Assembly: GCA_008632985.1 (NCBI GenBank)
Contig: QPGO01000155.1
Coordinates: 1 to 64,000 of the forward strand
Direction: 5' to 3'
From: Psammoneis japonica
Lineage: Eukaryota
DNA: 64,000 nucleotides
Of this stretch, positions 1 through 26,049 are shown one piece after another. A program made the translations under genes and the position numbers. Under the pieces are notes generated by a model, which searched no databases, was not told where the DNA came from, and saw only the letters and a list, made by a program, of their open reading frames with translations. Within the stretch, counting starts at the first letter, position 1; the number at the start of each line of letters is the position of its first letter.

Positions 1-993
1 GGGCTAACGGCAACCAAATTGCACCCCCAATTGTTTGCCATGTCGTCCATGGCGTCGTTTGGGATTGTTCAATGTGCAAAAGAGCAAGATGCAAGATTCA
101 AGAAGAGTGTCCCAAAAGATGATTGGATGGAAAAGAGGGGAGGTGTTGCAGTTCTGTTGATGGGCTTACGCAGCGCAGAGGAGTTGTGAAAATGAGGTGG
201 AGCAACGCATGTGCTCTCAATCACCAAAGGCACAAAACACGTGCATTCTGCTACACTGCGCATTTGCAGACAAGCCCTGTACGTGCGCAGGGCCCCAAAC
301 ATGTTCCACACGCTGAAAGAGCAGCGTGCGCGCACGCATGCACTCCCACCCAATCGTGTGATTGCACAATGCATTTCATTCAACAACGCAGATGAAGCGA
401 GCACTTTAAAAAAGAACACACATGAAAAATCAAACTTCAATTGTGGAAAATCGTACATTCAAAAGTGAACCAATGAGAACCCAATTTTTGTTCAAGGAAA
501 ATTTTGTTTCAAATGGGAGGAAAGAACAATCTTCTTAACACAACAGGTCGACATGGTTGTCAATGTTCATTTCAGAACAACAATGCTTGATTGAAACAAT
601 GAAAAATGCAGAAAAGAATGAAACTGAACACAATTCAAAAACCGTGCAATGAGAACATGCAACCGTGACTTTGCAATTGTGCCAAACAGATTCGGCTCAT
701 CCCGGACCATCCACAAGCACAAAAAGCTAATTAGAAGTCGAAAACACAATGATGAATTCATTTCATCAGACACAGGTGTCGGTCGTCAGCCTTGATCTCA
801 CAAACACATCGAGGGCAAACACTTCAACAGAGGGAAACACAACCCTGTCAAGGACAGATGTTGCAATGGCGGGGAACACAGGCAGGTGCATTTGAAATCG
901 AAGTGTGTGTTTGGAAGCTAACATTGTGATCTGACATGCAGTGGGAAGCTTCTGTGACAAATCCAGGGGAAAAAAACAGCACCCAATCGTCCA

Positions 994-3728
994 TTGGATT
1001 GTCCAAGAGACTTTTTCCATCCGACGACAGGGGCCAACCCCACAAGACCAGAGGATGCTGCTCTTTTGTGGTCATGCCGAAAGGCACGTCCACAACTTGG
1101 TGAGGTGGAGACGGTGCCGCCCAATGGCAAGAAGATGCTTCAAGAGGTGGCACAAATCCAGTTGTCCCTTCAACAACATGTCATGACTCAACACCTGGAG
1201 GGCTGTCGGAAAAATGCAATGGACAAGGAGGTGGCAATGCCATCAACAAACACCAATCCCGTCACAACAGAAGACTTCAAAAACATTCTGGCAAGCATGG
1301 ACATCACAACCGAGAATCAGCAGCTCGTGCATCAAGTTTTCCACGCCTTTCATCGCAACAGAGGATGGCTGTCTGCTGCCATTGACAAATGGTTCACAGC
1401 AAACAACATGAAGCTCATGCCGCAAGCCACGGACGCTTCCAGCAAACCTCGCAAAATGTGTCGCGATGACAGAGGCGGGTTTGCTGTGGTGGCACGCCAA
1501 GCCAAATGTCAAATGACCAAAACGTTTGTGGAGTTCATGCTGCGGAAAGCAGGCTGGTGTGTGGCAACTACAATGCACAAGAGCAACAAGGAGAATGGAG
1601 GTAAAACACATGTGGCCGTCCCCGCTGCAACCAATGCAGAAACAACAACCAAAGCAAAGTTTTACGTCGTGTCGATGAAACCAGTGGCGGTGAGTTAGTC
1701 GCACATTGTTTGTTTGTCCTTTTGTTGACAACCTTGTTTGGTTGACGACTTCGTTCCCATTTCCGGTCCTTGACAGCAGGAGGAGAACACCGAAGCATCA
1801 AAACAAGTTGCTCAGGGAGCATCCAGCAAAGACATTGACATTGCATCCCTTGTGGACCTTGCAAAAACAGCAAGCATGTTGTCAGAACAAATGGGAGTTC
1901 CGCTGTCCAAGGAAGATTTGCTCCAGTTGATTCGTGGCAGCATGACAGTCACCAGTTCATCCCAAATGGTCAACGAAGAGATTGTGCTTGATCCGCAACA
2001 TGAGTCCGAAACTCAGGTGTCAACACTGACCATGGACACCGCGCTAAATTGCCCATCCGAACCAACGGCAAAGCGGAAGTTAACCGAGAAGGAGAAGGAG
2101 GCAGAGCAAATTCCTCGTCGGGAGCGCAATGATGAACTGGAACCCCTCACCATGGATTTGGATGTCATCGATGGTTGGAGTTCCAATGACGAAGAGTTGG
2201 CAGAAATGGCGTCACAGGTGACTGTGTGATTTGGTGGTCCAATTGCTGTGGTGTTGGATGGCTCTAACCAACTTCCGCTTTGATGCCTTGTTTGGCTTGT
2301 CAGACACAGTTGCCTGGGTCCCCTTGTTGCAGGACGGAACAAGAGCCCGGGAACGCTCCAGCGGTGAGAAAAATGCATTGTGTCATGCGGCTGAATTGCA
2401 CGTCGCTCACACCACTGTTCTTCATGCAAAAGGTTGATGAGATGGACGAGCCAACTGGTGCAAAAGAAAAGGTGAGAGCATTGTCGGTGCTCCAGCTGTC
2501 AATTTGGACTGTTGCTCTAACAGCTCTTTGGCCTCATTGGGTTGCTGGATGCCACACCAAACCATCCCAGACAGTTGAAACACTGGAGCGAGCACAAAAA
2601 AAACAAGTGAGTGAACAGAGTTCTGAGGCAGAGCGCGACACATGGATTGGACCCAACCAATCACACTGCTCCTGCTGTTCTTCATGACCAGGCAAATGAG
2701 GTGGTTGACAGCGGCAATGATGAAAAGGTGAGAGCAATGTCGGTGCTCCAGTTGCAAATGAAACAATTGCTCTGACCACTTTGGGGCGTCATTGCTGGAT
2801 GCCAGACTCAACCATCCCCAGTTGCTGAAATGCCAGAGAGAGCACCACAGAAGATGGTAAGATCACATTGTTTTGCAGCCAATTGTGCAATTCATCGGAC
2901 ACGTCTCACACAGCCATTGTTGTTTGCAATGAGAAAGGTCGAAGAGACAATGGCAAATGGCGCAAATGAAAAGGTGAGAGCATTGTTGGTGCTCCGGATT
3001 GCCATTGAGAAGTTGATCTAACGGCATTCAATGTGTGTCATGATGGCATTTCTTTTGCAGACTCAACCAGCCAACCACTCTAACCCATTGTTAAATCCAT
3101 TGCAAAACAAAGCGGTGAGAATGCATGATGAAGTCGTGCGGATTGTGCCAAGTGTCTTGGAAACATCACCTCTCACTTTGTTGTTTGTTTGCAACAAAGA
3201 CAAAGACAGCAAATGACAAATGCACACACAAAACTGCAACACTCGTTGTGGCTCAAGTGGATCAAACAACTGCTTGCAATTCGCAGGTGTAGAGCAAACG
3301 TCATTGTTGATTTGGCACGCCTGTTGTTGTGTTGTCTTGTTTGCGCACACAAACCAATTGTGTTTGTTTGTTTGTGTTTGCAGTGCAAGTGCGAGGAGGC
3401 TCACTTGTTCCATGCCTTGGTCCATCAAGATGACGGAAAATGTTTTGCTCAAGCGCACTTCAAAACCAACCCACTGTTCCCTGCAAAGTGCTGTGGCGAA
3501 AAGTGTGATGTTGTTTTTGGATCAAGCAGTTACAAGGTTGGACAAAGAAAGGCAGTTTGGGTTTGCATGAACGCATTGAATGGTTCTTGCAATTGCAGGT
3601 TTGCATTGTGTGTGCAGTGTCATCAAAAGACCATGTCAGCTGCATCTAACAAACGGCGCCGAAGGACAACCCGAAACAACAACAACAAACAACAAGGCAA
3701 CGCAACACATGCGCACAACGCAATGTAA
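994..3728 (+). pseudogene. Multi-exon gene of unknown function inside a TpA-depleted domain, probably TE-borne; Cys-rich C-terminal part
   Basis: ORFs 994-1698 and ~1778-2229 can be joined through a GTGAGT (1690)...TTGACAG intron. A later segment reads KCCGEKC...VWVCMNALNGSCNCRFALCVQCH. No family recognised. Confidence 0.3.
2455..3005 (+). repeat. Three dispersed copies of GAAAAGGTGAGAGCA(T/A)TGT(C/T)GGTGCTCC, spaced about 250 bp apart
   Basis: Motif at ~2467, ~2722 and ~2968. Flanks of copies 1 and 2 are also similar (GCTGGATGCCA...AACCATCCC). The motif contains a splice-donor-like AG|GTGAG. Confidence 0.75.
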
Positions 3729-3824
3729 CACACAATTGCTTGGGATTGATTTCACCGGCACAGTCAGGGTTCGGCGGATGTGTTTGTTGACAGAGTCAAT
3801 CGAAGCACAGCTTCGTAAATGACA

Positions 3825-4260
3825 GTTGTTCAGAGCGTCAGCAAATTTGTTCATAGTTGTGATCTGTTTAAATGGAGAGGCTGTCGTTGTCCGTTGTTCA
3901 TTCAGAGCTTTGCTCTAGCCAAATGTCCGTTGTTTGTTCAGAGCTTTGCTCCAATTAAATGGAGATTCCACGGGCATCCAAACATCATTCAGAGTCGTGC
4001 TCTGATTGAATGGACACAATCACAGCAGCGCTCTGAATGTCAGCACAATGCTCTAATTTGCAAATTAATGCTCTGAATGCAATGCTCCAAACAAAATTCC
4101 ATGGCTCCGAATGACCAAATTTACTCTGATTGTGCTCTGCGTGGGCGTCATCGCCTCAATTGACTCTCATTTGCTCTGAATGTCCCACATTGTGTCGGGA
4201 CAATTTAAATGAAGCGTTGCTCAGAATAAAATGTTTGGAGCACAAATGAAGAGAATCTCA
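3825..4260. repeat. Cluster of short CAGAGC / GCTCTGA(A)T motifs in both orientations, resembling transposon subterminal repeats
   Basis: Repeated TTCAGAGC, TGCTCTGAATG, GCTCTAAT and GCTCAGAAT within about 430 bp. Confidence 0.6.
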
Positions 4261-4694
4261 TCTGCAGTGCAGGCAGCTCCGATTTTATGAAAAAAAGGAA
4301 GAGGAAAGAGAGGAGGGGAGAGAGAGGGCTCTACGTTCAATGATCACGCACGACGTCCAGATGCCTGACGCGCCTCAGACCTGCCGCAAAAACAACACAC
4401 AAAAAAAAACAACCATGGCGGCAGCAACTGCCCTGCTCGATTGTTCCGCCAAACCTTTCCCACACAACAAATGAATGTGCCACATTCCATTGTTTTCTCT
4501 GACAAGTGTGTGCAGCAACAGAGAGGCAAGAGAAAATCCAAAAATGGATGAAAACTCCCTTCTGGGATTTTGCTGCTGTTGGTGTTTTCTCACAACTGGC
4601 GCGTTTCAATTGTTGTTCGCACTGGACAGATTGAAGAGCACTTTTGGAAAAGTCCATGTGTGAATGGCAGTCGAGGTTGACCTCGGGCTGGGTG

Positions 4695-4990
4695 GCGTGG
4701 GAGTCGGCGGCGTTGGAGCAGATGGGCTGCATGGTGTCAGTCGGCGGCATGGTGTTCAGTGGCGTTGGAGCGCTGCAGCAGGCGGTGCAGGAGTCAGCGG
4801 CATTGGAACAGCTGGGCAGCATGGTGGGCAGTTTGGCCAGAGCAGCCAGTTTGCGCAGGTCATGTCAGTTGGTGATTCGGCGGCGTTGGAGCAGCTGGGC
4901 AGTGCAGGAGTCGGCGGATGGCGACTCGGCGGCAAGAGCAGGTGGCACTGGAGCAGCCATGCAGCATTGAAGTCGGCGGCATTGGAGTTG
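4695..4990. repeat. Imperfect tandem repeat GAGTCGGCGGC(G/A)TTGGAGCAG(C/A)TGGGC
   Basis: At least 5 degenerate copies; the minus strand translates as repeated CSNAADS/CSNAAES. Confidence 0.8.
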
Positions 4991-5229
4991 CTGGTCGTGA
5001 TTTTGTTGCATTGCATTTGTCACTTTTGTCCTAGAGAGCTCATCTCTGTGGCATTGTTTCTGACTTCAGTCATTGACAGCGTGTTCCACAGGGCACGCAA
5101 GTGCGACTGCTGCAGCCACTCTTGCGACTGCTGCTGCAACTCTTGCTGCTCGGGATCCATTGCAATGCCGAAAAGAGGGGGGAAGGGGAGAACAAACCAT
5201 GATGATGACCGGGCCACATTTGTTGTCTA

Positions 5230-8200
5230 TGAGTTTTCCATCACCAATTCGGGAACTCGGGGTCGACTGCTGTGCCCTTCTCCGTTCGAATCTTCTTCCA
5301 CCTGCGTTGCATTGCATGAGTTCCTGTCTCTTTCGTGTCATCTCCAATGTTGTGTCCATGTGGCACCTCCCAGTGTGGCACCCTGTTGGCATCTGGCACA
5401 GTGCAGCATTCAGCGGCATTTGGCTTGGCCCGTCTGCTGTGGTGCTCTCCCTTTCGCTTCCCACCACAACGGAAACAGCGCTGCGCCTGACGATCGGAAG
5501 CTTTTCTTTTCTTGCTGCTGCTTTCTTGACTTGGGGGAGGTTCCGGCATTCGGATGTGTCGCCTGTGTTGGATGGACTCCATGACAGCTTCATTCCGAGT
5601 CGGTCTGCTCATCTGAACGGGCGGCAAATTCACGGGTTGGGACTCTCCTGGTGCTCCACATGGCTCAGATCGTTCCGGTTGGTTTGAACGCGGTGATCGA
5701 AACGTTTGCTCACGAGCACTCGATTGCACGTTCTTTCGGATTCGCTTTGACTCGCTGCGCACAACAACTGTCCTGAGCACACCAGAGTCGGCACGAACTG
5801 TGCTTGTCTGTCGCATGGTTCTATCCTTGAGTTTCTGTCTCTCTGCCTTTTTGCAATGGGCTGCAAGAATCGGGGCTGTCTTTCTGAACATTTGACGACG
5901 CTCACTGAGGGGTTTCTGCCATTCAGTGTCTACAAGGTCATCCCAATGGGTGTTCATGCGCACAAAATCATACAACCCTCGCTGGTTTCGGTTGTTCTGA
6001 CTGCGTTTTGTGAACTGCGGCAGCACATCCTGAAATAGTTGACTCAGCATGCATTTTAGTTGTCGGCGTTGGAACATTGTGGCGATCGTGCGCAGTGCTG
6101 GAGCGGCGCAGGCGGTGTCAGCAGTGACGACTGCCATCTTCTCCAGCCATCTTGAATGGCAATGACGACACTGTAAGTGCAGATTGCTGAATTGTGCATT
6201 TGTTTTGTCATTGCCGAGTTCTCATCCATCGTCACCAATTTGGAAACTCAGGGTCGACGCCAATGTTGTTGTCCATCGGATCCTCTTCCATGTTCGCTTT
6301 GCAATGTTTGAGTCTACTGCTCTGAGATCATCTCCAGCATTGCAGCCATTTGGCACTTCCCAGTGTGGTGCCCTGGCCTCAGCCGGCACGGTGCAGTGCT
6401 CCGTGCTGTTGGGCTTTGCCCTGCGGTTGTGACGTGGACCATTTCGGGTCAAACCACAACGGAAGCAGCGCTGCGCCTGGCGAGTGGAAGCTTTTCTTTT
6501 CCTGTTTTCATGATGTGGTGGAGGATCTGGCATTCGGATGTGTCGCCTGTTAGCTGCCAATTCCAACACAGCTGCATTTTGAGCCGGTCTGCTTGTGTTT
6601 GCAGGCGGCAAATTCATGGGCTGGCACTCTCCTGCAACCCCAAACGGCTCAGACCTTTCTGGTGGGTTTGGAAGAGGATCACGAAAGGTTTGTGCACGAG
6701 CTGTTTCTTGTGTGTCTGCTCGGATTCTATCTGTCTCCCTGCTCACAATGACTGTTCTCTCGACGCCAGTGCTGTCACAAGTGGTTGTGGTTTGCCGCAC
6801 AGTGCGAGCTTTGAGTTTCTGTCTCTCGACCTTTTTGTGATGTGCCGAGAGAACAGGCACTCGCCAAGTGGTTTTTGCCATTCAGCATCTGCCAGATCAT
6901 CCCAGCATGTGTTCATGCGTGCAAAGTCATGCAAACCCCGCTGGTTTTGGTTGTTTTGTGCTGCTTTTGCGAATCTTGGGAGCACTTCCTGAAACAATTC
7001 GGCTTCACAGCCGGTGACCTGAGTGACCGGAACACCATCCCTTCCATCTCGTTCCGCTGGAATTCCAAAGCTTCGGACATGGCGTTTTCTGCTGTTGCTG
7101 CAGGTGACTCGGAATCCTCCACATTGATTGTTGCCATGCACCGGTCCTCAATCGGCGTGCATGCACCTCCTCCGGCATGTCCAAAGTCATTGGGGTTTAC
7201 AAGGTCGCCTTGGTGCTGATGCACTCCATGCTCATAGTTTGCGGTTTGCATGTTGTGGACTGTTTCGTGATTGTAGAATTGCGAGTGCTCGGAAGGTGCA
7301 AGTCCCCTTTCTGCTGCGCGATCATGGTTCCATCGGTGTGCAAATGTGGCCAGAAGACAAACCGCTGGCAAGGGGGATGAATGACATGCCGCTAGAGCTT
7401 CTTTCAGGTGCTTGTGAAAGCCTTCGAGCTGCGAAGTGCCACGAATTCAATGCATGGTTGTTTTCCCACTCGACGGATTGGCTCGGATGTGGCAGCAGTC
7501 AAAGCCTGGTCTGTCGCTCACACATCCTTTTTGGACATGTTTGACAAAGTTGAAATGAACTTTCCAGGTTTCCTTTGAAAAGAGTGGTTCCCCCGACTTG
7601 GCGCACTTGACATTGGCAATGAATCGAACCATGCTCTTGATTCGTGCCAAAAGATCGCGGGGTGGGGGCATTGTTCTCTCGATGTCCGCCAAGGTCTTGG
7701 ACGACGGCCGATTCATCCTCCTTTGCACCTCCTTCTTTGCTTCCTCGTGATTGTTGTGCCACCTGCCATGCACATGGTTTGTGAGCTTTGCCGCCAGCTT
7801 CTCGACTTCAAGGTCCAGCCGCTCCTGATTGATTGGCAGCATGGAGTCACGAAGCAGTCCCGACGCTTCTTCATAAAAACCATGCTTCTTCTTCCAAGTG
7901 CTTTTGACATCCTTGAGAAAATGGAAGCAATCCCCTTTCACACAGTTTCGTGCGAACACCTCGGCAGCTGCTTCATCCCCAGCAAGCAACTCAATGTCGC
8001 CGTCCTCGTGATCATGCTGCAGCACTGCAAACTGGAGCTCATCATCATCGTTTTTGTTTCGAGAGCCATGTGAGTCTGGGAACTCACTCAGGCTGCTTCC
8101 TTCTGGCAGGTGCCCTGTTTCTTCTTCGTTTGAGCTGAGGTCTCCCCTTGGTGAGCTGGAACCGGCAGGGTTGCTGCAGCATCACATTTCGTGTGAAAAA

Positions 8201-10024
8201 TTGTGCGAACCCAGATGACGTCGGCCAAATTCAGCTCCAAGATTTCCTTCCCTCCGCCAAACACTCCTCATCACGCGCTTCGCTCGCCAAGAACAAAAAA
8301 CAACGCAACGACACAATGATGGTGTCGCTCCCAAGAGCAGCAGAAGCAATGCGGCATTTGAGCCACAAGCTGCCACAAGCAAACACACCACACGCCAAGG
8401 CACCAACAGAGAGACAGCTCGGGTGCTGATGCTGCAGACAGCATTCAGAAGAGACAGCACAGGCGACGAAGCCACCCTCGTTGACCCAACTTCTCGACTC
8501 GAATGGTCGACTCAGCTTGTTCTCTTGGTGGCTGTGGCATCCTTTGGTGGACCCAAATGCAAGTTTCTCCTTGAAGATTTGTTTTTGCTCGAAAATGACT
8601 TCAACAGTGGTTCTGCTTGCTTTGGTCGTGCACCGTGCCGGTTCCAGGTTGCGAGTGCTCGGAAGGTGCAAGTCCCCTTTCTGCTGCGCGATCATGGTTC
8701 CATCGGTGTGCAAATGTGGCCAGAAGACAAACCACTGGCAAGGGGGATGAATGACATGCTGCCAGAGCTTCTTTCAGGTGCTTGTGAAAGCCTTCGAGCT
8801 GCGAAGTGCCACGAATTCAATGCATGGTTGTTTTCCCACTCGACGGATCGGCTCGGATGTGGCAGCAGTCAAAGCCTGGTCTGTCGCTCACACATCCTTT
8901 TTGGACATGTTTGACAAAGTTGAAATGAACTTTCCAGGTTTCCTTTGAAAAGAGTGGTTCCCCCGACTTGGCGCACTTGACATTGGCAATGAATCGAACC
9001 ATGCTCTTGATTCGTGCCAAAAGATCGCGGGGTGGGGGCATTGTTCTCTCGATGTCCGCCAAGGTCTTGGACGACGGCCGATTCATCCTCTTTTGCACCT
9101 CCTTCTTTGCTTCCTCGTGATTGTTGTGCCACCTGCCATGCACATGGTTTGTGAGCTTTGCCGCCAGCTTCTCGACTTCAAGGTCCAGCCGCTCCTGATT
9201 GATTGGCAGCATGGAGTCACGAAGCAGTCCCGACGCTTCTTCATAAAAACCATGCTTCTTCTTCCAAGTGCTTTTGACATCCTTGAGAAAATGGAAGCAA
9301 TCCCCTTTCACACAGTTTCGTGCGAACACCTCGGCAGCTGCTTCATCCCCAGCAAGCAACTCAATGTCGCCGTCCTCGTGATCATGCTGCAGCACTGCAA
9401 ACTGGAGCTCATCATCATCGTTTTTGTTTCGAGAGCCATGTGAGTCTGGGAACTCACTCAGGCTGCTTCCTTCTGGCAGGTGCCCTGTTTCTTCTTCGTT
9501 TAAGCTGAGGTCTCCCCTTGGTGAGCTGGAACCGGCAGGGTTGCTACAGCATCACATTTCGTGTGAAAAATTATGCGAACCCAGATGACGTCGGCCAAAT
9601 TCAGCTCCAAGATTTCCTTCCCTCCGCCAAACACTCCTCATCACGCGCTTCGCTCGCCAAGAACAAAAAACAACGCAACGATACGATGATGGCGTCGCTC
9701 CCAAGAGCAGCAGAAGCAATACGGTATTTGAACCACAAGCTGCCACAAGCAAACACACTATATACCAAGGTACCAACAGAGAGATAGCTCGGGTGCTGAT
9801 GCTACAGACAGTATTCAGAAGAGACAGCATAGACGACGAAGCCACCCTCGTTGACCTAACTTCTCGACTCGAATAGTCGACTCCGCTTGTTCTCTTGGTG
9901 GCTGTGGCATCCTTTGGTGGACCCAAACGCAAGTTTCTCCTTGAAGATTTGTTTTTGCTCGAAAATGACTTCAACAGTGGTTCTGCTTGCTTTGGTCGTG
10001 CACCGTGCCGGTTCCAGGTTGCGA
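5230..10024 (-). mobile_element. Rearranged DNA-transposon relic with DDE-type transposase fragments (MULE/ISL3-like DxxH; RGTSQLEGFH...RWN type)
   Basis: Minus strand reads DCFHFL...IERTMPPPRDLL...GEPLF...HVQKGCVSDRPG...MH*IRGTSQLEGFHKHL...HRWNHDR. The C-terminal part is present twice in diverged form (5241-6137, 6222-7141) and the core is present twice (7447-8025, 8817-9395). Confidence 0.55.
7279..10024. repeat. Near-identical 1370-bp tandem duplication (7279-8648, 8649-10018) with TTGCGA microhomology at the junctions
   Basis: Matching ORFs are offset by exactly 1370 bp (7447/8817, 7723/9093, 7950/9320). TTGCGA occurs at 7279, 8649 and 10019. Confidence 0.95.
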
Positions 10025-10333: not shown

Positions 10334-10694
10334 ATGGCGTTGAGCCAGGATGAATTGAAGAAGATGATCGGATACAAGGCCGTTGATGATTACGTGAAGA
10401 GCGGCATGATGGTTGGACTCGAACGGGAGGCACTGCTTACTATGCTGTCGAGCGTGTTGGCGAATTGCTCAAGTCTGGCAAACTCAAAAACATCCTTGCC
10501 ATTCCCACTTAGATCCGTACAAAAAATCAAGCTGAGAGCCTTGACATTCCGTTGGTGACCCATTCCAAGCTGGACGTTGCGACAGACGGTGCCGACGAAG
10601 TCGATCCTGATCTCAACCTTAGCAAGGGAGACGGCGGAGCTTTGTTCAGGGAAAAGATTGTGGATGTCTGCTCTGACAAGTTCATCGTTATTGG
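10334..10694 (+). pseudogene. rpiA: Ribose-5-phosphate isomerase A pseudogene (5' part, frameshifted)
   Basis: MALSQDELKKMIGYKAVDDYVKSGMMVGL, then a frameshift, then ...TAYYAVERVGELLKSG...[30 protein letters not shown] (RpiA DGADEVD and KGxGGALxREK motifs), with an internal stop. Confidence 0.85.
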
Positions 10695-10719
10695 TAAGTG
10701 GTTGAGAAGTAAACTATCG

Positions 10720-11904
10720 ATGGTATCGCCCTTTTGGTCCTTCGCCAACTCCAACTTTTCGTTGGAGACAGACAAGGCCAGTTACAGAGTCAAGGTAGTC
10801 ATGGCCCAAGTCGGGAGTATCCTTGGTCCTACTGTTGTGAATCGATACGGTCCTACCAAGTGTTACCTTGTTGGTGCACTCTGTGTGCTCTTGGCCGAAG
10901 AACAGCAAGGTGAAGGAATTCTTGGACCAAGGGCATTTTCGCCATTTCATACCTCTTCGTGGTTGAAGTCACCATTGATGATTACACCATGAAGGTGCTG
11001 GCGCGAGACTACTTTGCCGATCATCTTCATCCTTGTCTGAAGGTATGAGTTGCGACAATCCTCATAACGGAGACCACGGCATGTCGCAAGACGCAACCGC
11101 CGCCTTTACCACCATATGGGACTCTTCGGGCGAGCCACTAACACGCTATCCTTCCTCTTGAACGTGTTGGGAACGAATGCAGTTATTCGTTGTTTGGGAT
11201 TGTGCTTGACGCTTTTTTTGTTCCCCTCGCTCTGTCGGTCTGGTTGTCATTATCTTTTTCAGATTTCATGCGACCCTTTACGTTGTCTTTGCAGCCATAA
11301 TGTTGCCCAAGGCTTGTTCCTACGCCTTGAACAATCCCACGAAGGAAATGCTCTACCAACCAAACTCGCCTGCTGTCAAGTACAAGCCAAAGTCGTGGAT
11401 TGATATCTTTGGTGCACGTGGAAGCAAGGTAAGCGCAAGCTCGTCACACACTTGTCACCAAGAAAATGATGAAGGGTACTCACATCTACCTGTATATCCC
11501 TTAAATGTTTTACGATTTTTCTTTACCTTTAGGCTACGGGAAGTGTTGTGACGAACGCCTTCTCTAACTCTGCGTCGTCCTTGGTTACAAACGGTAGCTT
11601 GGTGGGAATGGCGGTCGCCTCCTTTTTGATTTGGAATGCCCGCTTCATGGTAAAGAAATTCGGTTAATACTCCGAGAGCGGATACATTGTCGGAGGCGAC
11701 AATGATGAGTATAACCAAATGAACAATGGTGAGAAGAACTTGGAAACGGCCATGGTGCAGACCGAAGACAAGGATACGAGTTGTGCCATTGCCGATGACA
11801 CCGAGGTTGGGTCGGAAGAAGAAGGAGAGTCCGTTGATGGCAGTGCTGCCAGCCTAGGCAGCGATATGGACAGCAAGGGAGACGCTCGAATACAAATGGT
11901 GTAG
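10720..11904 (+). pseudogene. TLC/NTT (ATP/ADP or nucleotide transporter) family pseudogene fragments
   Basis: [12 protein letters not shown]...[38 protein letters not shown]...[17 protein letters not shown]. Multiple frameshifts and deletions. Confidence 0.75.
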
Positions 11905-12339: not shown

Positions 12340-12504
12340 AGCGAATAAATCTGGATGTGGAGGTGCGGCTACATCCACAGCTCCCTTACCGTTCGTAAGC
12401 TTAAAGATTCGTTATCGTATCATTCTCTCTAACGTTATAAGCTACTCTTCTCTCTTGTGGCTTGTACTAGTACCGTCTGTACGACCACCGCATCGGATTT
12501 TACT
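12340..12504 (-). repeat. 3' LTR (165 bp), TpA retained
   Basis: Direct repeat of 18868-19019. On the minus strand it is preceded by a short purine-rich tract (GCGGGGACCG) and a CGAGTCGG...CCGACTCG hairpin. Confidence 0.9.
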
Positions 12505-12651
12505 CGGTCCCCGCGAGTCGGCATTACTAGACCGACTCGTACTCTCGAAACATCCTCTTGTTAAGAGGTAAAACACACCCAGTTAGCCGCCAATTAGTTT
12601 GGCCTGGGAGGTCGCAAGACGTGGACGCGAGTCACAGGCCCTGGACCTTGG

Positions 12652-15600
12652 CTACCAAAACAGAAATGAACAAAGCTGCCATCGCTTCTCACCCTTCAAA
12701 ACTTTCGTCAACAGATCCGCAAGATTGGTCTCAGTGTCTTCCTTTCCGACCCTCGTGATCCCAGCCGCAACCGCTTCCCTCACTGAATGGTAGTTGATCG
12801 CGTTGTGCTTCTTGTGCAATGTGGATTTGGGAACACTTACATTCTTTACCACGCCACGATTGTCACAAAACACATTCGCCGGCCCATCAACCGGGACCCC
12901 AAACATGCGAAGCTTGCAACGCAGCGTGACAATCATCTCCTTACAAATCCGCATTGCCACTGACTCGCTCCCAAATGCAGACGTTTCCACTGTATTCTGC
13001 TTCTTGCTGAACCACATGGTTGGTGCATTGTTCACAAAGAGGACAACCCCAGAGTGCGACCTGCGAGTGACGACATTCCCAGCATGATTCGCATCGACAA
13101 ACGCACTGACAGTTGCCGGATTCCCGTGCGCCTTCGGCATTCTGGGCGGCATTTCCTCCTCGACTTCTCTGCAGAACTCCGTCCAGTCCGCCTTGGTGTT
13201 AAACAGTGACTCATCGATCTCAGGCACCTTCGGATCGCAACCCACTTGGCCCATGTTTGGGTGCTTCTTCATGTGCGCGAAGACGTGATGCAGCGCCTCC
13301 AAACGCCCTTTCCTCGGGTTTGCCTGACATTGAGACAACAAAGACACTTCAAGCAGCACATCAATGCGCCCAAGTTCAATCGCCCACCTTGCTGTCCCAA
13401 TCAGCTGCAAGTGTCGCGACAACAGTTCTGGCCCCAACTCATCCGTCACGTCCAACTCCGGTTTGCAGTTTGCTGGAAACGGGCCCTTTGCGTTGTTCTT
13501 GAGAACCGCACCATTGCGGTCCTCCGTCAGCAGGTCCTCCACTGTCTTAATTGCATTCTTGATGTGCGCCCATGGAGAGCTGGCCCAAATCATTCGCCCA
13601 TCTGGAGTCTGTGCCTTCTCGATCGTGGCGCCCAGGCATGTCTCAGGTTCACCTTCGCTTCCGGGTTTGATTTTGCAATGCGACAAAATTGCTTCGCAAA
13701 TTGACTTGCCTTGGTGTGATGCGATCAACACATCATCGACACAGACCAAAAGCATCTTGTGGTGCTCGTGTCCGTCCCCGCGAGCCGCGGCATGCAGGCA
13801 AACGTCTGGATCTGCTGGAGTCGGCTCGAAACCCACATCGCGGAGTGCAGAGGCAAATGCTGATCGCCAAGAAAACCCCGCGCTCTTCAGTCCGTAAAGT
13901 GCTCTGACAACAATTAACACGCACCCTTTGAACTCACCGCACTCAGTGCCACCCTCAAACCATGTCTTCTCAGCACACGGTGCATTCAAATGTGCATTCT
14001 CCAGGTCAATTGCAGTGACATCAACGCCGTTGAGCGCCGCCAACATGAGAGCAATGCGAATGCTGTCTCGGGAAACCACACTGGAGCACACAATCAAATC
14101 TGGGGCTGCAGCAGCATGTCCGCCCGCAACAAACCTTGCCTTGCGAGTGAAGCCCATCTCAACGTCGAAGACCATGTGACACTGGATTTCCTGGTGACCT
14201 CGCAACGCATTGCTCTTGCCCTTGCGAACCTCCTCGGGTGTCTCACCTTTGTGTTTGCGCCAGGCGACCTTTGCCTTGCTCATTTCCTTGTTGATTGCTC
14301 GTGCCCAGTAATCTGTCCCCGTTTCTCTGTCGATCCGGAGTGCATCATCCACACTCTTTGGCAGCATGACCCCAAACTTGTGCATCGTGCGCCAACACTT
14401 TGACTTGGCCTTGGAAATGGTCCGGCTGCGCTTGCGCAAAACATGTGACACCCTCCAAGCAAACGCTGGTTCATCAGAGATCCGGTTTGCCACTGCGCAT
14501 TCGTCAACTTCAATCGGGTTAGACGCCTTGAGGTCTTTTAGCTTGACCCAGCTTGTGCTCCCATCGCGCCAGAGTGCCAGAAGCTCCCATCCCTTTGTTG
14601 TGGCCTTTTGTTTAACCTGCCCACCGGCTGTCGTGACCGTGCCATCTGCGGCTTTCCGGTGGTCCTGAATCTCCTGCAAGATGGAGAATTGACGCCCCTC
14701 CAAGTCGACCTGAGCATGCATGTTCTTGGCAATGATGTTTGCAGCACACTTGTCTGTCGTGCCATCGGCAAACTCGACCTCATGCTCCCTCATGTCAAAC
14801 AGTGAGTGCTGGTGCCGCCGACCCAGGGGCCTGCCATCGTTGCCGCGCGCTTGCTTTGTGACTGCCCCACGCCTTTCACCCTCGGTGCCAACGTCCATGA
14901 TGAGCTCCATGCCAAGATGTTGGTCGACAACCTCCTCGTCATTGTTGTCTGGGCACTCACCATCCTGCAGCATGTCACCGCACTCCTCGTCGCTTGGGGT
15001 TGCGCCCCCTTCGCATTGGATCCCATCGCTTCCATCGATTGCAACATCGTCCAAACAGAAAGCCGGTGCTGCCTCGTCGCCCTCAACCACAAAGTTCGTG
15101 TCGTCAAGTTGCCAAGTCAAGGCCTCATTGAAATTGTTGATCTGCTTCCGCTTGTCCAACTCAACACAATCGGCCTGCACAACGTGCTCCACTGAGGTTT
15201 TCGACACCAACTCACCGCTCTCGGTGATGATCCAGCAGCACATGTCGGACCCAACCTTGTGCGACATGCCAAGCCAATGCCCAAGCCGCCTCGGATCGTC
15301 TGTTGCATTTGGCTTGTCTGGTCGGTCCCACCACCATGCTAAGTCGCAGAACCTAAAATCCAAGCACTCACCAATCTCTGGTGTTTGCCCAGTCACTTCC
15401 TCATGTCCGGTCCTGCAGTCACGTCCTCTGGCCATGTGCGACACCAGCTCTGACTCACACACAAGTCCAAAATCCCATGATCGCTTTGGCACTTTCTTCT
15501 TCATCATCCTGGGTCTCCAGCGCTTCACAAGGAATCCAATCTCGCGTTCCGCCACACAGTTCTGATTCTTGCGTCCCTGTTCCGAGTTTTGGAGCTGAGC

Positions 15601-15810
15601 GCGCATGCGCCTTGCGTGTTTGACGAACTCTGTGTTCTTGCCGGTGAACTCTCCAGCACCGTCCGTGAGCAATGTCTCAGGCACACCAACGTCATCCGTA
15701 AAGTCGATCAATGATTGCCCTGAGTCTGACCTGGCTGCCATGGGAACAACTTTGACAAACTTCCCCTGAGTGCAAACGTTCGCGCACGTGTTTCCCAGTG
15801 ATGACTTCAC
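12652..15810 (-). CDS. Copia pol (integrase core, reverse transcriptase, RNase H); catalytic YVDD reads CVDD
   Basis: LLTDGAGEF (integrase); TRKARFVAGGH, RALYGLKSAG and LLVCVDDVL (RT); AFVDANHAG...RRSHSG, FCDNRGVV and NLADLLTK (RNase H). Confidence 0.93.
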   Translation of the reverse strand: MKSSLGNTCANVCTQGKFVKVVPMAARSDSGQSLIDFTDDVGVPETLLTDGAGEFTGKNTEFVKHARRMRAQLQNSEQGRKNQNCVAEREIGFLVKRWRPRMMKKKVPKRSWDFGLVCESELVSHMARGRDCRTGHEEVTGQTPEIGECLDFRFCDLAWWWDRPDKPNATDDPRRLGHWLGMSHKVGSDMCCWIITESGELVSKTSVEHVVQADCVELDKRKQINNFNEALTWQLDDTNFVVEGDEAAPAFCLDDVAIDGSDGIQCEGGATPSDEECGDMLQDGECPDNNDEEVVDQHLGMELIMDVGTEGERRGAVTKQARGNDGRPLGRRHQHSLFDMREHEVEFADGTTDKCAANIIAKNMHAQVDLEGRQFSILQEIQDHRKAADGTVTTAGGQVKQKATTKGWELLALWRDGSTSWVKLKDLKASNPIEVDECAVANRISDEPAFAWRVSHVLRKRSRTISKAKSKCWRTMHKFGVMLPKSVDDALRIDRETGTDYWARAINKEMSKAKVAWRKHKGETPEEVRKGKSNALRGHQEIQCHMVFDVEMGFTRKARFVAGGHAAAAPDLIVCSSVVSRDSIRIALMLAALNGVDVTAIDLENAHLNAPCAEKTWFEGGTECGEFKGCVLIVVRALYGLKSAGFSWRSAFASALRDVGFEPTPADPDVCLHAAARGDGHEHHKMLLVCVDDVLIASHQGKSICEAILSHCKIKPGSEGEPETCLGATIEKAQTPDGRMIWASSPWAHIKNAIKTVEDLLTEDRNGAVLKNNAKGPFPANCKPELDVTDELGPELLSRHLQLIGTARWAIELGRIDVLLEVSLLSQCQANPRKGRLEALHHVFAHMKKHPNMGQVGCDPKVPEIDESLFNTKADWTEFCREVEEEMPPRMPKAHGNPATVSAFVDANHAGNVVTRRSHSGVVLFVNNAPTMWFSKKQNTVETSAFGSESVAMRICKEMIVTLRCKLRMFGVPVDGPANVFCDNRGVVKNVSVPKSTLHKKHNAINYHSVREAVAAGITRVGKEDTETNLADLLTKVLKGEKRWQLCSFLFW

Positions 15811-15855
15811 CTTTGAAATTAGGGCATCGGCATGCCACGTCCCCTTTAGTCGCTT

Positions 15856-16938
15856 TCAGTGCAGGTCCAAGTGATCCACCCTGACGCGCCTTGACATGGG
15901 CCATGTTGACGTCCTGACACCCCGCTGAGTGGTCACATTAAGTGTGTCCTTTGCTGCATCTAGGCCGACGTTCCACTCACGCGCCAGCTCTTCAGGAGTG
16001 ATCTTTGAGTGTCTGTCCTGGGTCCTCAGTTCAGAGATCTTGCGCTCGCGCCTGTTGACATCCTCCCTGCATGTGCAGGCAATCTTCACAGATGCAATCA
16101 TGCGGTCACAGAACGTCTGGAGGTTGTGAATCGGGGAAATGCTTGCCACAGTTTCTTCGACTTCTCCCCACTCTACCGCCTTGGACTGCTTTCTCTCTGC
16201 TCTCATCTCTGCAATCTCAGACTTGCGCATGTGAGAGGTCAAGGATTGAACAGTGCGCATTTCTTGTTGCTCACGAGTTTTGTTCGGGAAACCCATGTCC
16301 ACCTCTGTCGGGTTCCACATCTTGCCGGTCAAGATGATAACTGGCAAATTCTGCTCCTCCCAATCTGTTGGCACTCGAGTGTTGAAGGACACCACTGTCC
16401 CCGTGGTGTGGAAAGGGATGAAGGCTTCGTCCGTTGAAATGCCAAATGAGTCCTGAGGATCGTACGGGTTGTCATTGACTGGCATGTTGCATGCACGCAG
16501 TTGGTTTGGATTGATCAAGGAGTGTTCCATCTGCTGCCCAAACCATGACATCCAGTCGCCCACCAGCAGGCAATTCTTCGTCGTCTCCGGGTCTGTCCAA
16601 ACAGCGCAGCAACGTGTGACCGGAATCTCTTTAACAGGTTCATGCGATTCAAGGAAAGGACTTGCTTCGCATGTTTCATTCGTGAGCTCCATGAGTTTCC
16701 AATTTGCTCCGGCGCAGCAAGTGTCTGCATGTGTGTCACATTCATTTCGCAAAACGTGCCCCGGCTCTGTGTGTGTTGATGTCGTGGTCGCGTTTGCGGC
16801 CCTTGCACTGCACTTGGAAATCACTGAGATCCTGCGAGGTGTGCTTTTGAGGGTGTTTGGGTGGGGTTGAGACAGCAACAAGACCAAGATCAAGGGCAAA
16901 ACAAACACGTTTACGCAGCATGCACCAAGTGCTGTCAA
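15856..16938 (-). CDS. Copia protease / pre-integrase region
   Basis: NECDTHADTCCAGAN (aspartic-protease-like motif), SLINPNQLR, ITPEELAREWNVGLDAAKDTLNVTTQRGVR. The true start is probably internal or frameshifted from gag. Confidence 0.8.
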   Translation of the reverse strand: MTALGACCVNVFVLPLILVLLLSQPHPNTLKSTPRRISVISKCSARAANATTTSTHTEPGHVLRNECDTHADTCCAGANWKLMELTNETCEASPFLESHEPVKEIPVTRCCAVWTDPETTKNCLLVGDWMSWFGQQMEHSLINPNQLRACNMPVNDNPYDPQDSFGISTDEAFIPFHTTGTVVSFNTRVPTDWEEQNLPVIILTGKMWNPTEVDMGFPNKTREQQEMRTVQSLTSHMRKSEIAEMRAERKQSKAVEWGEVEETVASISPIHNLQTFCDRMIASVKIACTCREDVNRRERKISELRTQDRHSKITPEELAREWNVGLDAAKDTLNVTTQRGVRTSTWPMSRRVRVDHLDLH

Positions 16939-16956
16939 AGCTGTTGCCCCACACCT

Positions 16957-18411
16957 TCAGGACCGCCCTCCGCAGGCACCGCGCCCAAATCCTGCACCAT
17001 GGCGCCCACCATTGTCGTCGCTGCCTCCTCCGCCACCTGCGGTGCTGGGTGTCACTTGATGATCGTCCTGTTGCTTGCCATCCTTCTGCACTGCTGCCAC
17101 TTGGCGTTTGTTGTTGCGAGGGCCACCTCGCCCTTGCGAGTGGCCTCCACGGCCCTGCATGTGCTCCCCAGCTTGCCTCACGTAAGTCCAACCCCCGTTG
17201 GGTTTGAGCCCATCCCATTCGTCGGGAGAGAAAGTGCAAGTTGGGTCAGTGCAATCAACACCATTGATTGAGACCTCACCGCCGTGGCCACGACCGCCGT
17301 CGCGACCGCAGCCTCGACCACGTCCACGTCCTCCTCCGTCGCAGTTGCGACCACGTCCGGGGCCACCCGCAACCTGGGAGACCTTGCGCTTGTTCCTGCA
17401 ACACTGCGCCTCGAGCTGCGCTGGGCCGTGTAAACGAGCAACCTCTTTAGAGAAGAAGGTGCAGGCCCCTGCAAAGTCATTGCCAAAGCGTTCGCTGATG
17501 ATCGCCGTGCATGCGCAGAGGGCAACATCGTCCGTCTCAATCCCTTTTGGGAGTGCATCTGCTTTCTGGGAAGCGCTGGTTAGTTTGGAAGTGTACATTT
17601 CAAATGACAAGCACCTTTCATTTTTGTGATGCAGCATCTCGAGCTGCTTCTTGGCCAATTGAGTGTGCTTGCTGAGCTCGCCCTGGCCGTCACAGTGATC
17701 GGACCATGCCCAAAAGGCACGCCGCCTGTCCTTGGTGTCATTGAAAGACTCAATCCATGCGCATCCGTCCGTGTTGATGAGGCATTCCTTGAGGAAATGG
17801 CACACGGTCTTGTTGTCTTCCTCGAAGGATGGTCCGTTCAAGGGGACATCGAACATGCGCTGCTTGGCAGTGTCTGCAAATGCCGCCGGTGCTGCTGCGG
17901 GCCTCACCACATGACGCAAAGGTTCCTGATTGACCCCAAGCTTCTGAGATGAGAGGTTGAGGAACGCGTCTTCCATGGTCTCAAACTCGTCTGCGTCAAA
18001 CTTCGGCAGATGGCTCACTTTCGTGTCAGAGTCAGGACGATTGGCCTGAACACGCTTTAACTCACGTGCCACAACCAACGCCGCATGATCAAAGTCTGCC
18101 GCCACCAGGGCTTGTCCAAGCTTCTGAAGATCATGAAGCCACCAAACCAAGACTTGTAGATTTTTGAGCTGGATGGCACCTGTCACCACCCTGCCATCCT
18201 GCACGGCACGCCTGCCGGCGCGACTTGCCAACTCTTCGATGTCTTTGTCACTCTCCATCAGGGCTGAGTCTTCCAGGGTGTCAAATCCATCGTAAAAGAC
18301 GAGAGGAGCCCTTCCTCCTTGATTGGCAAAGCCACACACTTGCAACACGGCATCAACATTGTCAGCCGCTGCCAAAGCCGCAAGGGCTGCTCCTGGCGGG
18401 GCTGCTGCCAT
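16957..18411 (-). CDS. Copia gag-like ORF with an RGG-rich C-terminus
   Basis: 484-aa ORF between the PBS and pol; GGRGRGRG tracts; PLRHVVR...FEEDNKTVCHFLK...DGCAWI typical of diatom copia gag. Confidence 0.8.
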   Translation of the reverse strand: MAAAPPGAALAALAAADNVDAVLQVCGFANQGGRAPLVFYDGFDTLEDSALMESDKDIEELASRAGRRAVQDGRVVTGAIQLKNLQVLVWWLHDLQKLGQALVAADFDHAALVVARELKRVQANRPDSDTKVSHLPKFDADEFETMEDAFLNLSSQKLGVNQEPLRHVVRPAAAPAAFADTAKQRMFDVPLNGPSFEEDNKTVCHFLKECLINTDGCAWIESFNDTKDRRRAFWAWSDHCDGQGELSKHTQLAKKQLEMLHHKNERCLSFEMYTSKLTSASQKADALPKGIETDDVALCACTAIISERFGNDFAGACTFFSKEVARLHGPAQLEAQCCRNKRKVSQVAGGPGRGRNCDGGGRGRGRGCGRDGGRGHGGEVSINGVDCTDPTCTFSPDEWDGLKPNGGWTYVRQAGEHMQGRGGHSQGRGGPRNNKRQVAAVQKDGKQQDDHQVTPSTAGGGGGSDDNGGRHGAGFGRGACGGRS

Positions 18412-18853
18412 AGTTCTGTTGGTGAATGCAAGGGAAAAAGGTTAGGTTGTGAGATTTGCGCACGCACACTGGGTTGGTTGGGAGACTGAGCGCATCCGAG
18501 CGCCATGGCAATGGGTCCATGTAGCCAACCGGTGCTGGGTGGCCAAACCCAGACCATTTCTTTCTCATTGGGCACATGCCCGGGCATGCCGCCCCACGCT
18601 GCGCTGTCCAACACCCATTGACATGTTGGAAACTGTTTGAGTTGCAAGCGTGATCCCATTCTGACCGTAAATCCCATCGTCAAGTTCGACAATTTTCTCA
18701 TTCACACGTGGCAGATTCGCACACGTGGGACTCAGCACACTTTCTGCGGTCAGCTCCCAGGTGGTTCTCAACAACAGCGAATGTGTGCGTGTGTCGCTCT
18801 CAATGCAGGTCATGCAATCACAGTTTCAATGCGCCCAGATGCTCACTCTGAAG

Positions 18854-18867: not shown

Positions 18868-19019
18868 AGCGAGTGAATCTGGATGTGGAGGTGCGGCTAC
18901 ATCCACAGCTCCCTTGCCGTTCGCAAGCTTAAAGATTTGTTGTCGCATCATTCTCTCTGCTCTTCTCTCTTGTGGCTCGCATTGGTGCCGTCTGTGCGAC
19001 CACCGCATCGGATTTTACT
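18868..19019 (-). repeat. 5' LTR (152 bp), TpA largely converted, 13-bp deletion relative to the 3' LTR
   Basis: Aligns end to end with 12340-12504. Confidence 0.9.
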
Positions 19020-25995: not shown

Positions 25996-26049
25996 GCACT
26001 TCAACGACTGCATCCACAGGAACCGCTTCCCCCTTGGTGACAGGATCAT

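Follow-up and report, generated by a model that had tools for sequence, protein, structure and literature searches.

In the chlorarachniophyte alga Bigelowiella natans, the de novo rate of mutation from TpA to TpG or CpA in integrated viral DNA exceeds the background approximately 1000-fold (Mettrop et al., bioRxiv 10.64898/2026.01.13.699255). The parts of that preprint on which we draw describe exclusively T/A-to-C/G transitions that turn TpA into CpA or TpG depending on the strand, a restriction to certain regions that consist of foreign or repeat DNA, and a long-term depletion of TpA with a gain of CpA plus TpG in kilobase-scale clusters; they also report that TpA-poor coding sequences are enriched for reverse transcriptase and DDE domains (10.64898/2026.01.13.699255). 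The locus described here, a tandem duplicate within a 64-kb stretch of DNA that was analyzed as a whole (the window), shares the type of transition, the limitation to such regions and the kilobase-scale clusters. In both cases, the rate exceeds the background by about three orders of magnitude; here, three clock-like differences gave a rough minimum of about 1600. The organisms differ, with a diatom-like stramenopile here and a rhizarian there, and so does the extent of erasure, which is near-complete over multi-kilobase blocks in the window (TA observed/expected ratio of 0.0 to 0.15), whereas the preprint gives a ratio of 0.45 for the NCLDV region of B. natans (10.64898/2026.01.13.699255). 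Furthermore, the mutations were measured de novo in B. natans, whereas the present data show a footprint. To those parts of the preprint, the paired copies analyzed here add identical sequences with position-dependent fates and action after integration. Our literature search found no report of TpA loss in diatoms.

Repeat-induced point mutation (RIP) of ascomycete fungi, whose substrate is duplicated DNA, resembles the present case in that transitions at one dinucleotide affect transposons or duplicated DNA in the manner of a genome defence and can leak into neighboring sequences. However, chemistry and direction are opposite: RIP converts CpA to TpA, with an enrichment of TA, whereas the present process destroys TpA. 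In addition, RIP mutates both copies of a duplicate, whereas one of the two identical patches was left untouched here. Fungal RIP was rejected on observations detailed below, namely, that TpA was erased and not enriched, that Tyr residues were replaced by Cys or His, and that the patch in copy 2 has a normal TpA density and lacks double differences of CA versus TG. ADAR-type A-to-I hyperediting of double-stranded RNA from repeats and APOBEC-type editing of retroelements share with our observations A-to-G changes that favor a 5′ U/T neighbor, the involvement of both strands, and repeats as targets. These enzymes edit RNA or replication intermediates, whereas the putative long terminal repeat (LTR) pair, the tandem copies and a host pseudogene point to chromosomal change after integration; moreover, ADAR is not known outside animals. 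RNA-level hyperediting that becomes fixed via reverse transcription was rejected as well, since the putative LTRs differ at 10 TpA sites and since tandem DNA and a host pseudogene are also affected. Decay of methylated CpG to TpG or CpA likewise ends in CA/TG, yet it cannot remove TpA and constitutes a minor component here (6 of 28 differences). The two processes are separable, because 23 of the 35 TA-free bins of the window keep a CpG observed/expected ratio above 0.35, whereas the other 12 are also CpG poor.

Results

The window is diatom-like, and in 35 of its 64 one-kilobase bins the TA observed/expected ratio is at most 0.2, with CA/TG ratios of 1.4 to 2.3. This TA-free DNA holds a copia element, an element of the DUF6729/exonuclease type and a pseudogene, whereas the host genes (rpiA, TPT, LNS2 and others) sit in TA-normal DNA (Table 1). 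Like old relics, the TA-free domains show frameshifts, ordinary divergence and in-frame TGA stops. The borders of certain blocks are razor-sharp (42789-44398), which fits element-bound targeting better than it fits a soft chromatin edge. In seven pairs of older repeats, 39 adjacent double transitions were counted, of which 29 read CA against TG, indicating independent conversion in each copy; as the ancestral dinucleotide of such sites may have been either TA or CG, we took them to show only that each copy changed independently in situ. All of copy 1 and the greater part of copy 2 of the duplicate lie in the leftmost domain, and the adjacent rpiA gene has a normal TA content and is read away from the duplicate.

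Table 1. Positions of the features discussed in the text (window coordinates)
Feature	Position	Strand	Remarks
TpA-erased domain	1..9500	.	TA observed/expected 0.00-0.16 per kb, CA and TG 1.4-1.9; transposon-like ORFs
Transposon-type ORF, copy 1	6913..8181	-	423 codons, one in-frame TGA
Copy 1 (interior)	7279..8654	+	2 TpA in 1376 bp
Converted patch, copy 1	8131..8514	+	0 TpA; 22 of 28 copy differences
Duplication joint	8649..8654	+	TTGCGA, end of copy 1 and start of copy 2
Transposon ORF, copy 2	8649..9551	-	Truncated by the duplication joint; homology ends at 9536-9545
Copy 2 (at domain edge)	8649..10024	+	17 TpA
Unconverted patch, copy 2	9501..9884	+	16 TpA
Last 148 bp of the unit	9877..10024	+	TA-free in both copies; TG 18 vs CA 7
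Ribose-5-phosphate isomerase A (rpiA), host gene	10337..10992	+	Pfam match 10516-10992; start at 10337 set by eye
Putative 3′ LTR of copia	12340..12504	+	At the edge of the following TA-free domain; 16 TpA
copia (RVT_2) gag-pol ORFs	12652..18441	-	Tyr replaced by Cys/His
Putative 5′ LTR of the same copia	18868..19019	+	Domain interior
Coatomer subunit beta pseudogene, frameshifted	21466..23564	+	Inside a TA-free domain; 0 Tyr

An ungapped comparison at an offset of 1370 revealed a head-to-tail duplicate with a period of 1370 bp (7279-8654 and 8649-10024). On the assembly as given, the arrangement is that of a microhomology-mediated tandem duplication, in which the copies follow each other head to tail and a short motif marks both the joint and the outer ends (TTGCGA at 7279-7284, 8649-8654 and 10019-10024). 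No additional copy of the 1370-bp unit was found by blastn within the window. The ORF that runs into copy 1 is homologous to residues ~885 to 1270 of proteins of about 1500 amino acids with a 3′-5′ exonuclease domain and sometimes DUF6729, and this homology ends at 8166-8175, slightly within the patch that distinguishes the copies. A Pfam search gave no match for the ORFs of the patch, nor for seven of the eight first ORFs, and Rfam and tRNA scans of positions 7000-10500 and of the whole window gave no match.

The two copies differ at 28 of 1376 positions, with transitions accounting for 27 of these differences, and 22 of the 28 fall within positions 8131-8514, that is, within 384 of the 1376 bp (binomial p = 3.8e-8). 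One of the TpA dinucleotides of copy 2, at 9244, is common to copy 1, while the other 16 lie at 9501-9874 and read CA (9), TG (6) or CG (1, changed on both strands) in copy 1. The only unshared TpA of copy 1, at 7393, is CA in copy 2, and the first 852 bp of the unit hold two TpA in copy 1 and one in copy 2. The first-pass annotation of this DNA, which had described near-identical copies that are TA-poor over their first ~850 bp and 16 TA of the second copy that are lost in the first, thus agrees with the alignment, and all of the sequence examples that it quoted are present. The near-saturation that it had proposed for one copy is matched by the complete absence of TpA from the copy 1 patch, and the few extra A/G and CpG differences that it mentioned correspond to six sites with CpG versus CA/TG and three sites outside both TA and CpG.

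The pairwise spectrum, suggested in the same annotation as a check, pointed to TpA as the affected context. In the patch, 19 of 22 differences are A/T in copy 2 and G/C in copy 1; read as A/T-to-G/C changes, 17 of these 19 lie in TpA, compared with 15 of 172 unchanged A/T positions (Fisher p = 1e-13), and two A-to-G changes fall outside TpA. When the same 19 differences were read in reverse, as G/C in copy 1 changing to A/T in copy 2, 15 were located in CA/TG (Fisher p = 4e-5), but the odds ratio was 8.8, compared with 89 for the reading as TA loss. The TpA density of copy 2 over 9501-9876 is 42.6/kb, versus 43.9/kb in the TA-normal parts of the window. Three CpG of the copy 2 patch are CA/TG in copy 1. 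No double differences of CA versus TG were found between the copies, and this result, together with the equal density, marks the copy 2 patch as untouched. Outside the TpA sites, the two copies disagree at 10 of 1376 positions (0.7%).

The annotation had further placed the spared patch nearest to the domain edge. It is indeed the copy at the edge that was spared; however, the last 148 bp of the unit are free of TA in both copies, and TpA-free gaps of 148 bp or longer make up only 4 of 1079 in normal DNA. The TA-bearing patch is therefore an island of ~375 bp and not the extreme end of the unit. The 148 TA-free bp that separate the patch from the unique flank are not predicted by a simple edge-sparing rule and count against the explanation that we favor below.

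The direction of change could be read from the proteins encoded in the neighboring TA-free domains. In the copia polyprotein, 21 of 23 conserved-Tyr columns, defined as those with Tyr in at least 80% of 60 homologues, are occupied by Cys (14) or His (7), as predicted by a change of TAY to TGY or CAY, and the Tyr content is 0.28%, versus 3.21% in the 60 homologues. The coatomer-beta pseudogene lacks Tyr throughout its 686 residues; none of its 14 conserved Tyr columns is kept, with Cys or His in 9, and hence host-derived DNA was converted too. Furthermore, two different diverged contigs related to the duplicate, obtained from sequencing reads, carry TA-TA where copy 2 reads TATATA and copy 1 reads CACACG, with this outgroup evidence covering one of the 16 patch sites. 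The transposon ORF of the duplicate itself yielded just three usable columns (Cys, His and Tyr) in the same test, for which 48 of 88 homologues were kept after those shorter than 300 amino acids or with less than 2% Tyr had been dropped; this number is too small to carry weight. The comparisons with copia, the coatomer pseudogene and the related contigs support the direction from TA to CA/TG that the annotation had assumed, with TpA as the substrate rather than the product and TA as the ancestral state.

A metagenome scan with the copia protein returned one locus, with 39% identity and a normal TA content (observed/expected ratio of 0.56). Tyr-poor homologues are present in public data (P0153, P0250, P0252 and P0264).

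The copia element offered a second comparison of paired sequences, in two flanking segments whose status as LTRs was assigned solely from their spacing and their position on either side of the copia ORFs. Between these putative LTRs, 10 of 14 mismatches have TA in the edge LTR and TG/CA in the interior LTR, and none has the opposite sense; counted by base, 11 of 14 are A/T in the edge LTR and G/C in the interior LTR. Opposite the 16 TpA of the edge LTR, the interior LTR has TG at seven, CA at three and a shared TpA at three, and the remaining three fall within a 13-bp gap. The left edge of the copia is graded, with TpA declining gradually from 12595 to 12993, and edge sparing thus recurs both here and in the putative LTR pair. 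As the edge LTR keeps TA that the interior LTR has lost, the process acts on integrated DNA and by position, and it spares a few hundred base pairs at the domain edges in these sequences. The role of position rests on two paired comparisons, namely, the tandem copies and the putative LTR pair.

The annotation had also suggested a burst-like or processive event, a proposal that our data did not favor. Arranged by the strand of the change, the 15 single-hit sites of the patch read AAATATTTTTATTTA (7 runs, P = 0.34; 6 against 9, p = 0.61), and the order of Cys and His along the copia was random as well (13 runs, P = 0.48). The choice of strand thus looks random from site to site, there is no strand-coordinated tract, and a processive burst is not supported. 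A steady rate per TpA that exceeds the background divergence between the copies at least ~1600-fold would give the same picture, although this is a rough figure whose clock consists of three differences; some 1000-fold over background would suffice.

In the sequencing reads, exact contigs were recovered for both versions of the patch, and one contig links the TA-rich patch to the unique flank; the sequencing runs possibly derive from the same sample from which the window was assembled. The joint at 8649 was bridged by none of the contig pieces listed, and the bins 7444-7554 and 9331-9441 were without cover.

Discussion

Silenced, mostly transposon-derived blocks of this diatom-like genome probably lose TpA through position-targeted mutation of chromosomal DNA. 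Within such blocks, TpA would be changed to CpA or TpG on either strand until almost none is left. The original 1370-bp unit would have consisted of the erased, truncated tail of a large transposon gene together with ~480 bp of adjoining TpA-normal DNA, and it would then have been duplicated in tandem at the 6-bp microhomology. In copy 1, this adjoining DNA, now placed between two erased transposon pieces, would have lost all 16 TpA, while the identical DNA of copy 2, at the border by the active host gene rpiA, would have lost none. Since the same DNA met a different fate depending on its location, targeting would follow the position within the domain and not the sequence itself. Our comparisons established the pattern, its direction, its action after integration and its independence of sequence origin. 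Domain position most likely stands for chromatin state. The chemistry may be an enzymatic deamination of adenine in TpA (A to hypoxanthine to G) or an oxidation of thymine in TpA, two routes that are indistinguishable here because TpA is self-complementary.

Several other explanations have to be weighed against position-targeted loss of TpA. Diatoms are diploid, and the assembly could have joined two haplotypes or culture lineages of a single-copy locus, in which case the patch would reflect an allelic difference in the extent of hypermutation. The unbridged joint among the contig pieces listed would agree with this, as would diverged contigs that cover the right part of the unit together with the supposedly unique flank and thus indicate a second version of the neighborhood in the sample. 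However, the joint is clean, with its 6-bp microhomology and without any N or gap, and the word depths of the patch versions (41 and 32.6-58.9) are not below that of the flank (29.3), a weak hint given that depth is not copy number. We consider such an artefact unlikely; were it true, direction and saturation would stand, and the role of position would be left to the LTR pair. It is less likely still that the differences are older than the duplication and that an unequal exchange between a converted and an unconverted allele produced the tandem pair. The level of the 10 non-TpA differences is one that allelic divergence could reach, but the exchange would have had to fall exactly at the microhomology between alleles whose domain borders were shifted by ~400 bp, and the same asymmetry of edge and interior in the LTR pair would be left unexplained. 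Selection instead of targeting, by which mutants would be purged from copy 2 because its patch, 460 to 840 bp upstream of the rpiA start, serves as regulatory DNA while the redundant copy 1 decays, appears very unlikely to us. All 16 sites are retained at a TpA density that looks like that of neutral, normal DNA, the patch region contains no RNA family or tRNA that our scans could find, and the spared copia LTR and graded copia edge are transposon DNA, on which such selection is hardly to be expected.

Two further explanations would overturn the reading of the differences themselves. A RIP-like change of C to T at CpA/TpG could have created the 16 TpA of copy 2 after the duplication, and both the nature of duplicated DNA as the substrate of fungal RIP and the location of 15 of the 19 reverse changes in CA/TG would speak for it. 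Nevertheless, the replacement of Tyr by Cys or His at conserved positions of copia and coatomer indicates that TA was lost and not gained, related contigs have TA at the visible site, reading the changes as TA loss gives a far stronger context enrichment, and the three CpG of the copy 2 patch that are CA/TG in copy 1 fit copy 1 as the derived copy; this opposite direction is accordingly most improbable. Some other protists are known to concentrate modified bases in their repeats, and a modification at TpA in silenced DNA might be misread by the sequencer. Such miscalling would need to reach nearly 100% within the domains and nearly 0% outside them, the domains also bear frameshifts, in-frame TGA stops and ordinary divergence, and exact contigs of high depth show both states, albeit in runs that may be the assembly's own data. 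We therefore assign a negligible probability to a read-out artefact.

With position-targeted loss of TpA as the preferred explanation, the chances appear even that diatoms carry an in situ DNA-editing defence that erases TpA to saturation from DNA of any origin within silenced chromatin, a counterpart of RIP with the opposite chemistry that is targeted by position and not by homology. It would be common to diatoms and chlorarachniophytes by descent or by convergence and might be widespread in the SAR supergroup. So far, according to the sources on which we draw, a TpA-erasing signature has been measured in one rhizarian alga only, B. natans, and its saturation in a stramenopile would make it a candidate general defence instead of a curiosity. 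Diatom genomes would be shaped to a major extent by a process that strips one dinucleotide from transposons down to the last site, and with TAA and TAG gone, dead elements would show very long open frames that distort gene prediction. The paired copies serve as natural experiments, suggesting that the process works on integrated DNA and depends on location rather than on sequence, and such dependence on location would narrow the search for the enzyme to those recruited by chromatin state.

The two copies of the tandem duplicate differ mainly in TpA

The head-to-tail duplicate (see the table below) carries the hexamer TTGCGA at 7279, 8649 and 10019, i.e., at its two ends and at the joint, a hallmark of microhomology-mediated tandem duplication. 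The copies differed at 28 of 1376 positions, 27 of the differences being transitions, and 22 of the 28 fell within the patch of copy 1 (binomial p = 3.8e-8). Only one of the 17 TpA sites of copy 2, that at 9244, was also found in copy 1, while the remaining 16 (9501-9874) were read there as CA (9 sites), TG (6) or CG (1); the sole site in the reverse direction was 7393 (TA in copy 1, CA in copy 2). TpA was the context of 17 of the 19 patch changes from A/T to G/C, compared with 15 of the 172 A/T positions left unchanged (Fisher p = 1e-13). The differences outside TpA comprised six CpG-versus-CA/TG sites and three sites that were neither TA nor CpG. The first-pass annotation had thus described accurately a tandem pair with TpA loss in one copy, and the loss far exceeds chance. 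The TA-bearing patch that it had placed nearest the domain edge is indeed present, but as an island of about 375 bp, since the final 148 bp of the unit lack TA in both copies. This TA-free end is identical between the copies and contains TG 18 times versus CA 7 times. The corresponding TpA gap (9875-10038, 165 bp) spans the right end of the unit and continues just past it; either an older tract converted on one strand or mere chance may account for it, gaps as long as this being 4 of 1079 in TA-normal DNA.

Coordinates of the features compared in this section
Feature	Coordinates	Strand	Remarks
Copy 1 of putative head-to-tail duplicate	7279-8654		period 1370; interior copy
Copy 2 of putative head-to-tail duplicate	8649-10024		period 1370; copy at domain edge
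Patch in copy 1	8131-8514		converted
Patch in copy 2	9501-9884		unconverted
Transposon-type ORF of duplicate	6913-8181	minus	one in-frame TGA
rpiA (ribose-5-phosphate isomerase A)	start read at 10337; Pfam match 10516-10992
Putative edge LTR	12340-12504		direct repeat flanking copia ORFs
Putative interior LTR	18868-19019		direct repeat flanking copia ORFs; spacing to edge LTR 6528 bp
copia polyprotein	12652-15855	minus
Coatomer subunit beta pseudogene	21466-23564	plus	frameshifted, 5'-truncated, residues ~201-923 of 979; inside TA-free block

The transposon-type ORF had 626 relatives at E <= 0.001 in a representative library. Among 11 long relatives scanned, nine contained a 3'-5' exonuclease domain and three DUF6729, and the match of the window began only at about residue 885 of theirs. 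Homology to the transposon gene ran as far as 8166-8175 in copy 1 and 9536-9545 in copy 2, so that the patch lies almost wholly outside the recognisable gene; the order is transposon fragment, patch as adjoining DNA, unique flank and rpiA. The TpA density of the copy 2 patch (42.6 per kb versus 43.9 per kb in TA-normal DNA) indicates that the erased block ended, before the duplication, roughly at the end of the transposon fragment. An older tandem duplication (5241-6221 and 6222-6881, minus strand; ~70% identity, period ~960-990) corresponds by tblastn to the C-terminal portion of this DUF6729/exonuclease-type protein family, and its many aligned CA-versus-TG dinucleotides show that these copies decayed independently after duplication.

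TpA was lost, not gained

The copia polyprotein was aligned with 60 of the 120 homologues listed. At 23 columns with Tyr in >=80% of these 60 sequences, the window encoded Cys 14 times, His 7 times and Tyr twice, and its overall Tyr share was 0.28% versus 3.21% in the homologues. As TAY becomes Cys through TGY and His through CAY, TA was lost, in agreement with the direction originally proposed. The coatomer beta pseudogene contained no Tyr in 686 residues, and of its 14 conserved-Tyr columns (again from 60 of 120 listed homologues) six held Cys, three His and five some other residue; host-derived DNA was therefore converted like transposon DNA. Within the patch, outgroup support for TA ancestry comes from one multi-TA site only: two different, more diverged relative contigs from one public sample, compared by eye, show TA-TA at the position of TATATA in copy 2 and of CACACG in copy 1. 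Four public homologues of the copia protein and the transposon ORF (P0153, P0250, P0252 and P0264) were almost devoid of Tyr, with high contents of Cys and His (in one example, Tyr 0.29%, Cys 2.5%, His 5.3%), which suggests that TpA-erased copies may exist in other assemblies.

Edge sparing recurs in the copia element

The direct repeats flanking the copia ORFs are most simply its LTRs. At ten of their 14 mismatches the edge LTR had TA and its interior counterpart TG (7) or CA (3), and at none was the direction reversed; the edge LTR otherwise held three TpA common to both LTRs and three inside a 13-bp gap. The claim that the domain edge was spared thus holds for both pairs, the copy 2 patch having likewise kept its TpA. 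Along the copia edge TpA dropped stepwise, being normal to 12595, six in 12653-12993 and almost absent beyond. Seven older repeat pairs inside TA-free blocks contained 39 double transitions at adjacent bases, 29 of them CA versus TG, so each copy changed independently in place; an ancestral CG would look identical.

TA-free blocks across the window

Altogether, 35 of 64 one-kb bins had a TA obs/exp of <= 0.2 with CA and TG at 1.4-2.3, several holding just 0 to 2 TpA per kb, and the remaining bins ranged from 0.26 to 0.77. Gaps between successive TpA reached 1370-1609 bp inside the blocks, whereas in TA-normal DNA they averaged 22.6 bp. The blocks contain the copia element (RVT_2), the transposon-type ORF and unannotated ORFs; recognisable host genes (rpiA, a TLC-type fragment, a TPT transporter, an LNS2 protein, an ion channel, a urea transporter and an Exo_endo_phos protein) sit in TA-normal DNA. 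CpG decay also occurs in the window, yet strong CpG depletion (obs/exp 0.09-0.29, with CA/TG reaching 2.0-2.3) was confined to 12 (33001-41000, 43001-44000, 55001-57000 and 63001-64000) of the 35 TA-free bins, and CpG obs/exp was 0.46-0.89 in the remaining 23; the two losses therefore look like separable processes, or else the blocks differ in age.

One block, 42789-44398, is 1609 bp without any TpA. The TPT transporter gene (41548-42720) is part of the TA-normal DNA around it, and both borders of the block are sharp, unlike the graded copia edge; its ORF (42666-43520, minus strand) matched no Pfam family. Another block harbours tandem arrays at 24396-24615, 25467-26069 and 26056-26506 (periods 115, 201 and 249) that lie partly in long acidic ORFs. 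Because TAA and TAG are gone, both strands of dead elements within 1-27000 can be read in very long open frames, e.g., 1067 codons in the decayed copia, and gene predictors would overcall genes in TA-free DNA.

Mechanism and alternative explanations

The differing LTRs, the differing tandem copies and the converted host pseudogene show that the process works on chromosomal DNA, after integration, unlike ADAR- or APOBEC-type editing, which acts before it. Two identical patches met opposite fates, with conversion intensities at least 9-fold apart (95% bounds), and targeting is thus by position, not sequence. The strand split at the patch sites (CA 9 versus TG 6, 7 runs, P = 0.34) and the Cys/His order along copia (13 runs, P = 0.48) indicate that either strand was hit independently at each TpA and do not point to a tract converted processively on a single strand. 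The burst-like or processive event initially envisaged is accordingly unsupported, and no burst is needed. By a rough calibration on three clock-like differences, each TpA of copy 1 changed at a rate of at least ~1600 times background. We propose that a silenced chromatin domain would recruit an enzyme that may deaminate adenine or oxidise thymine in TpA. After the duplication, the copy 1 patch, lying between two erased pieces, would have been engulfed, and the copy 2 patch would have stayed at the border beside an active gene. This model gives no account of why the final 148 bp of each copy lack TA or why some blocks, such as 42789-44398, have razor-sharp borders.

The duplication at 8649 is putative and rests on the assembly. 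Among contigs from three runs of one sample in one study, possibly the same data as the assembly, exact matches at 8282-8544 represented the converted patch and those at 9509-9681 and 9652-9888 the unconverted one, and one contig (9681-10202) linked the TA-rich patch with the unique flank; none of the contig pieces listed bridged the joint. We consider it improbable that the copies are alleles strung together by the assembler, and rather less probable still that the duplicate was born by unequal exchange between alleles. Under either, direction and saturation would stand, and the pair would be lost as evidence for position. Gene conversion from a TA-rich paralogue is unlikely, as just 1 of the 22 patch differences was a transversion. 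Selection on the DNA upstream of rpiA and a read-out artefact are also disfavoured, as is a RIP-like process in the reverse direction; fungal RIP itself differs in its opposite chemistry and in mutating both members of a duplicate.

Relation to known hypermutation

The signature described in a 2026 preprint on the chlorarachniophyte Bigelowiella natans (10.64898/2026.01.13.699255) is exactly that of the window. Mutation-accumulation lines acquired 231 mutations in two integrated viral regions, 230 of which were A>G or T>C, all on TpA according to the preprint text, at ~6e-7 per site versus 3.5e-10 elsewhere. The same text reports 124 TpA-poor, CpA+TpG-rich clusters, enrichment of reverse-transcriptase and DDE domains in TpA-poor CDS, and a proposed ADAT2-like deaminase. 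Full-text literature searches found no report of this signature in diatoms. Two host-type proteins had their closest relatives in diatoms, namely Craspedostauros, Cylindrotheca, Nitzschia, Fistulifera and others for the TPT transporter (56-68% identity) and Attheya, Cyclotella, Thalassiosira and Fragilaria for coatomer beta (44-51%), which marks the window as diatom-like and not Bigelowiella. It thus adds a new and more extreme case, from a diatom-like genome, to a type of hypermutation previously described once, in an unrelated alga.
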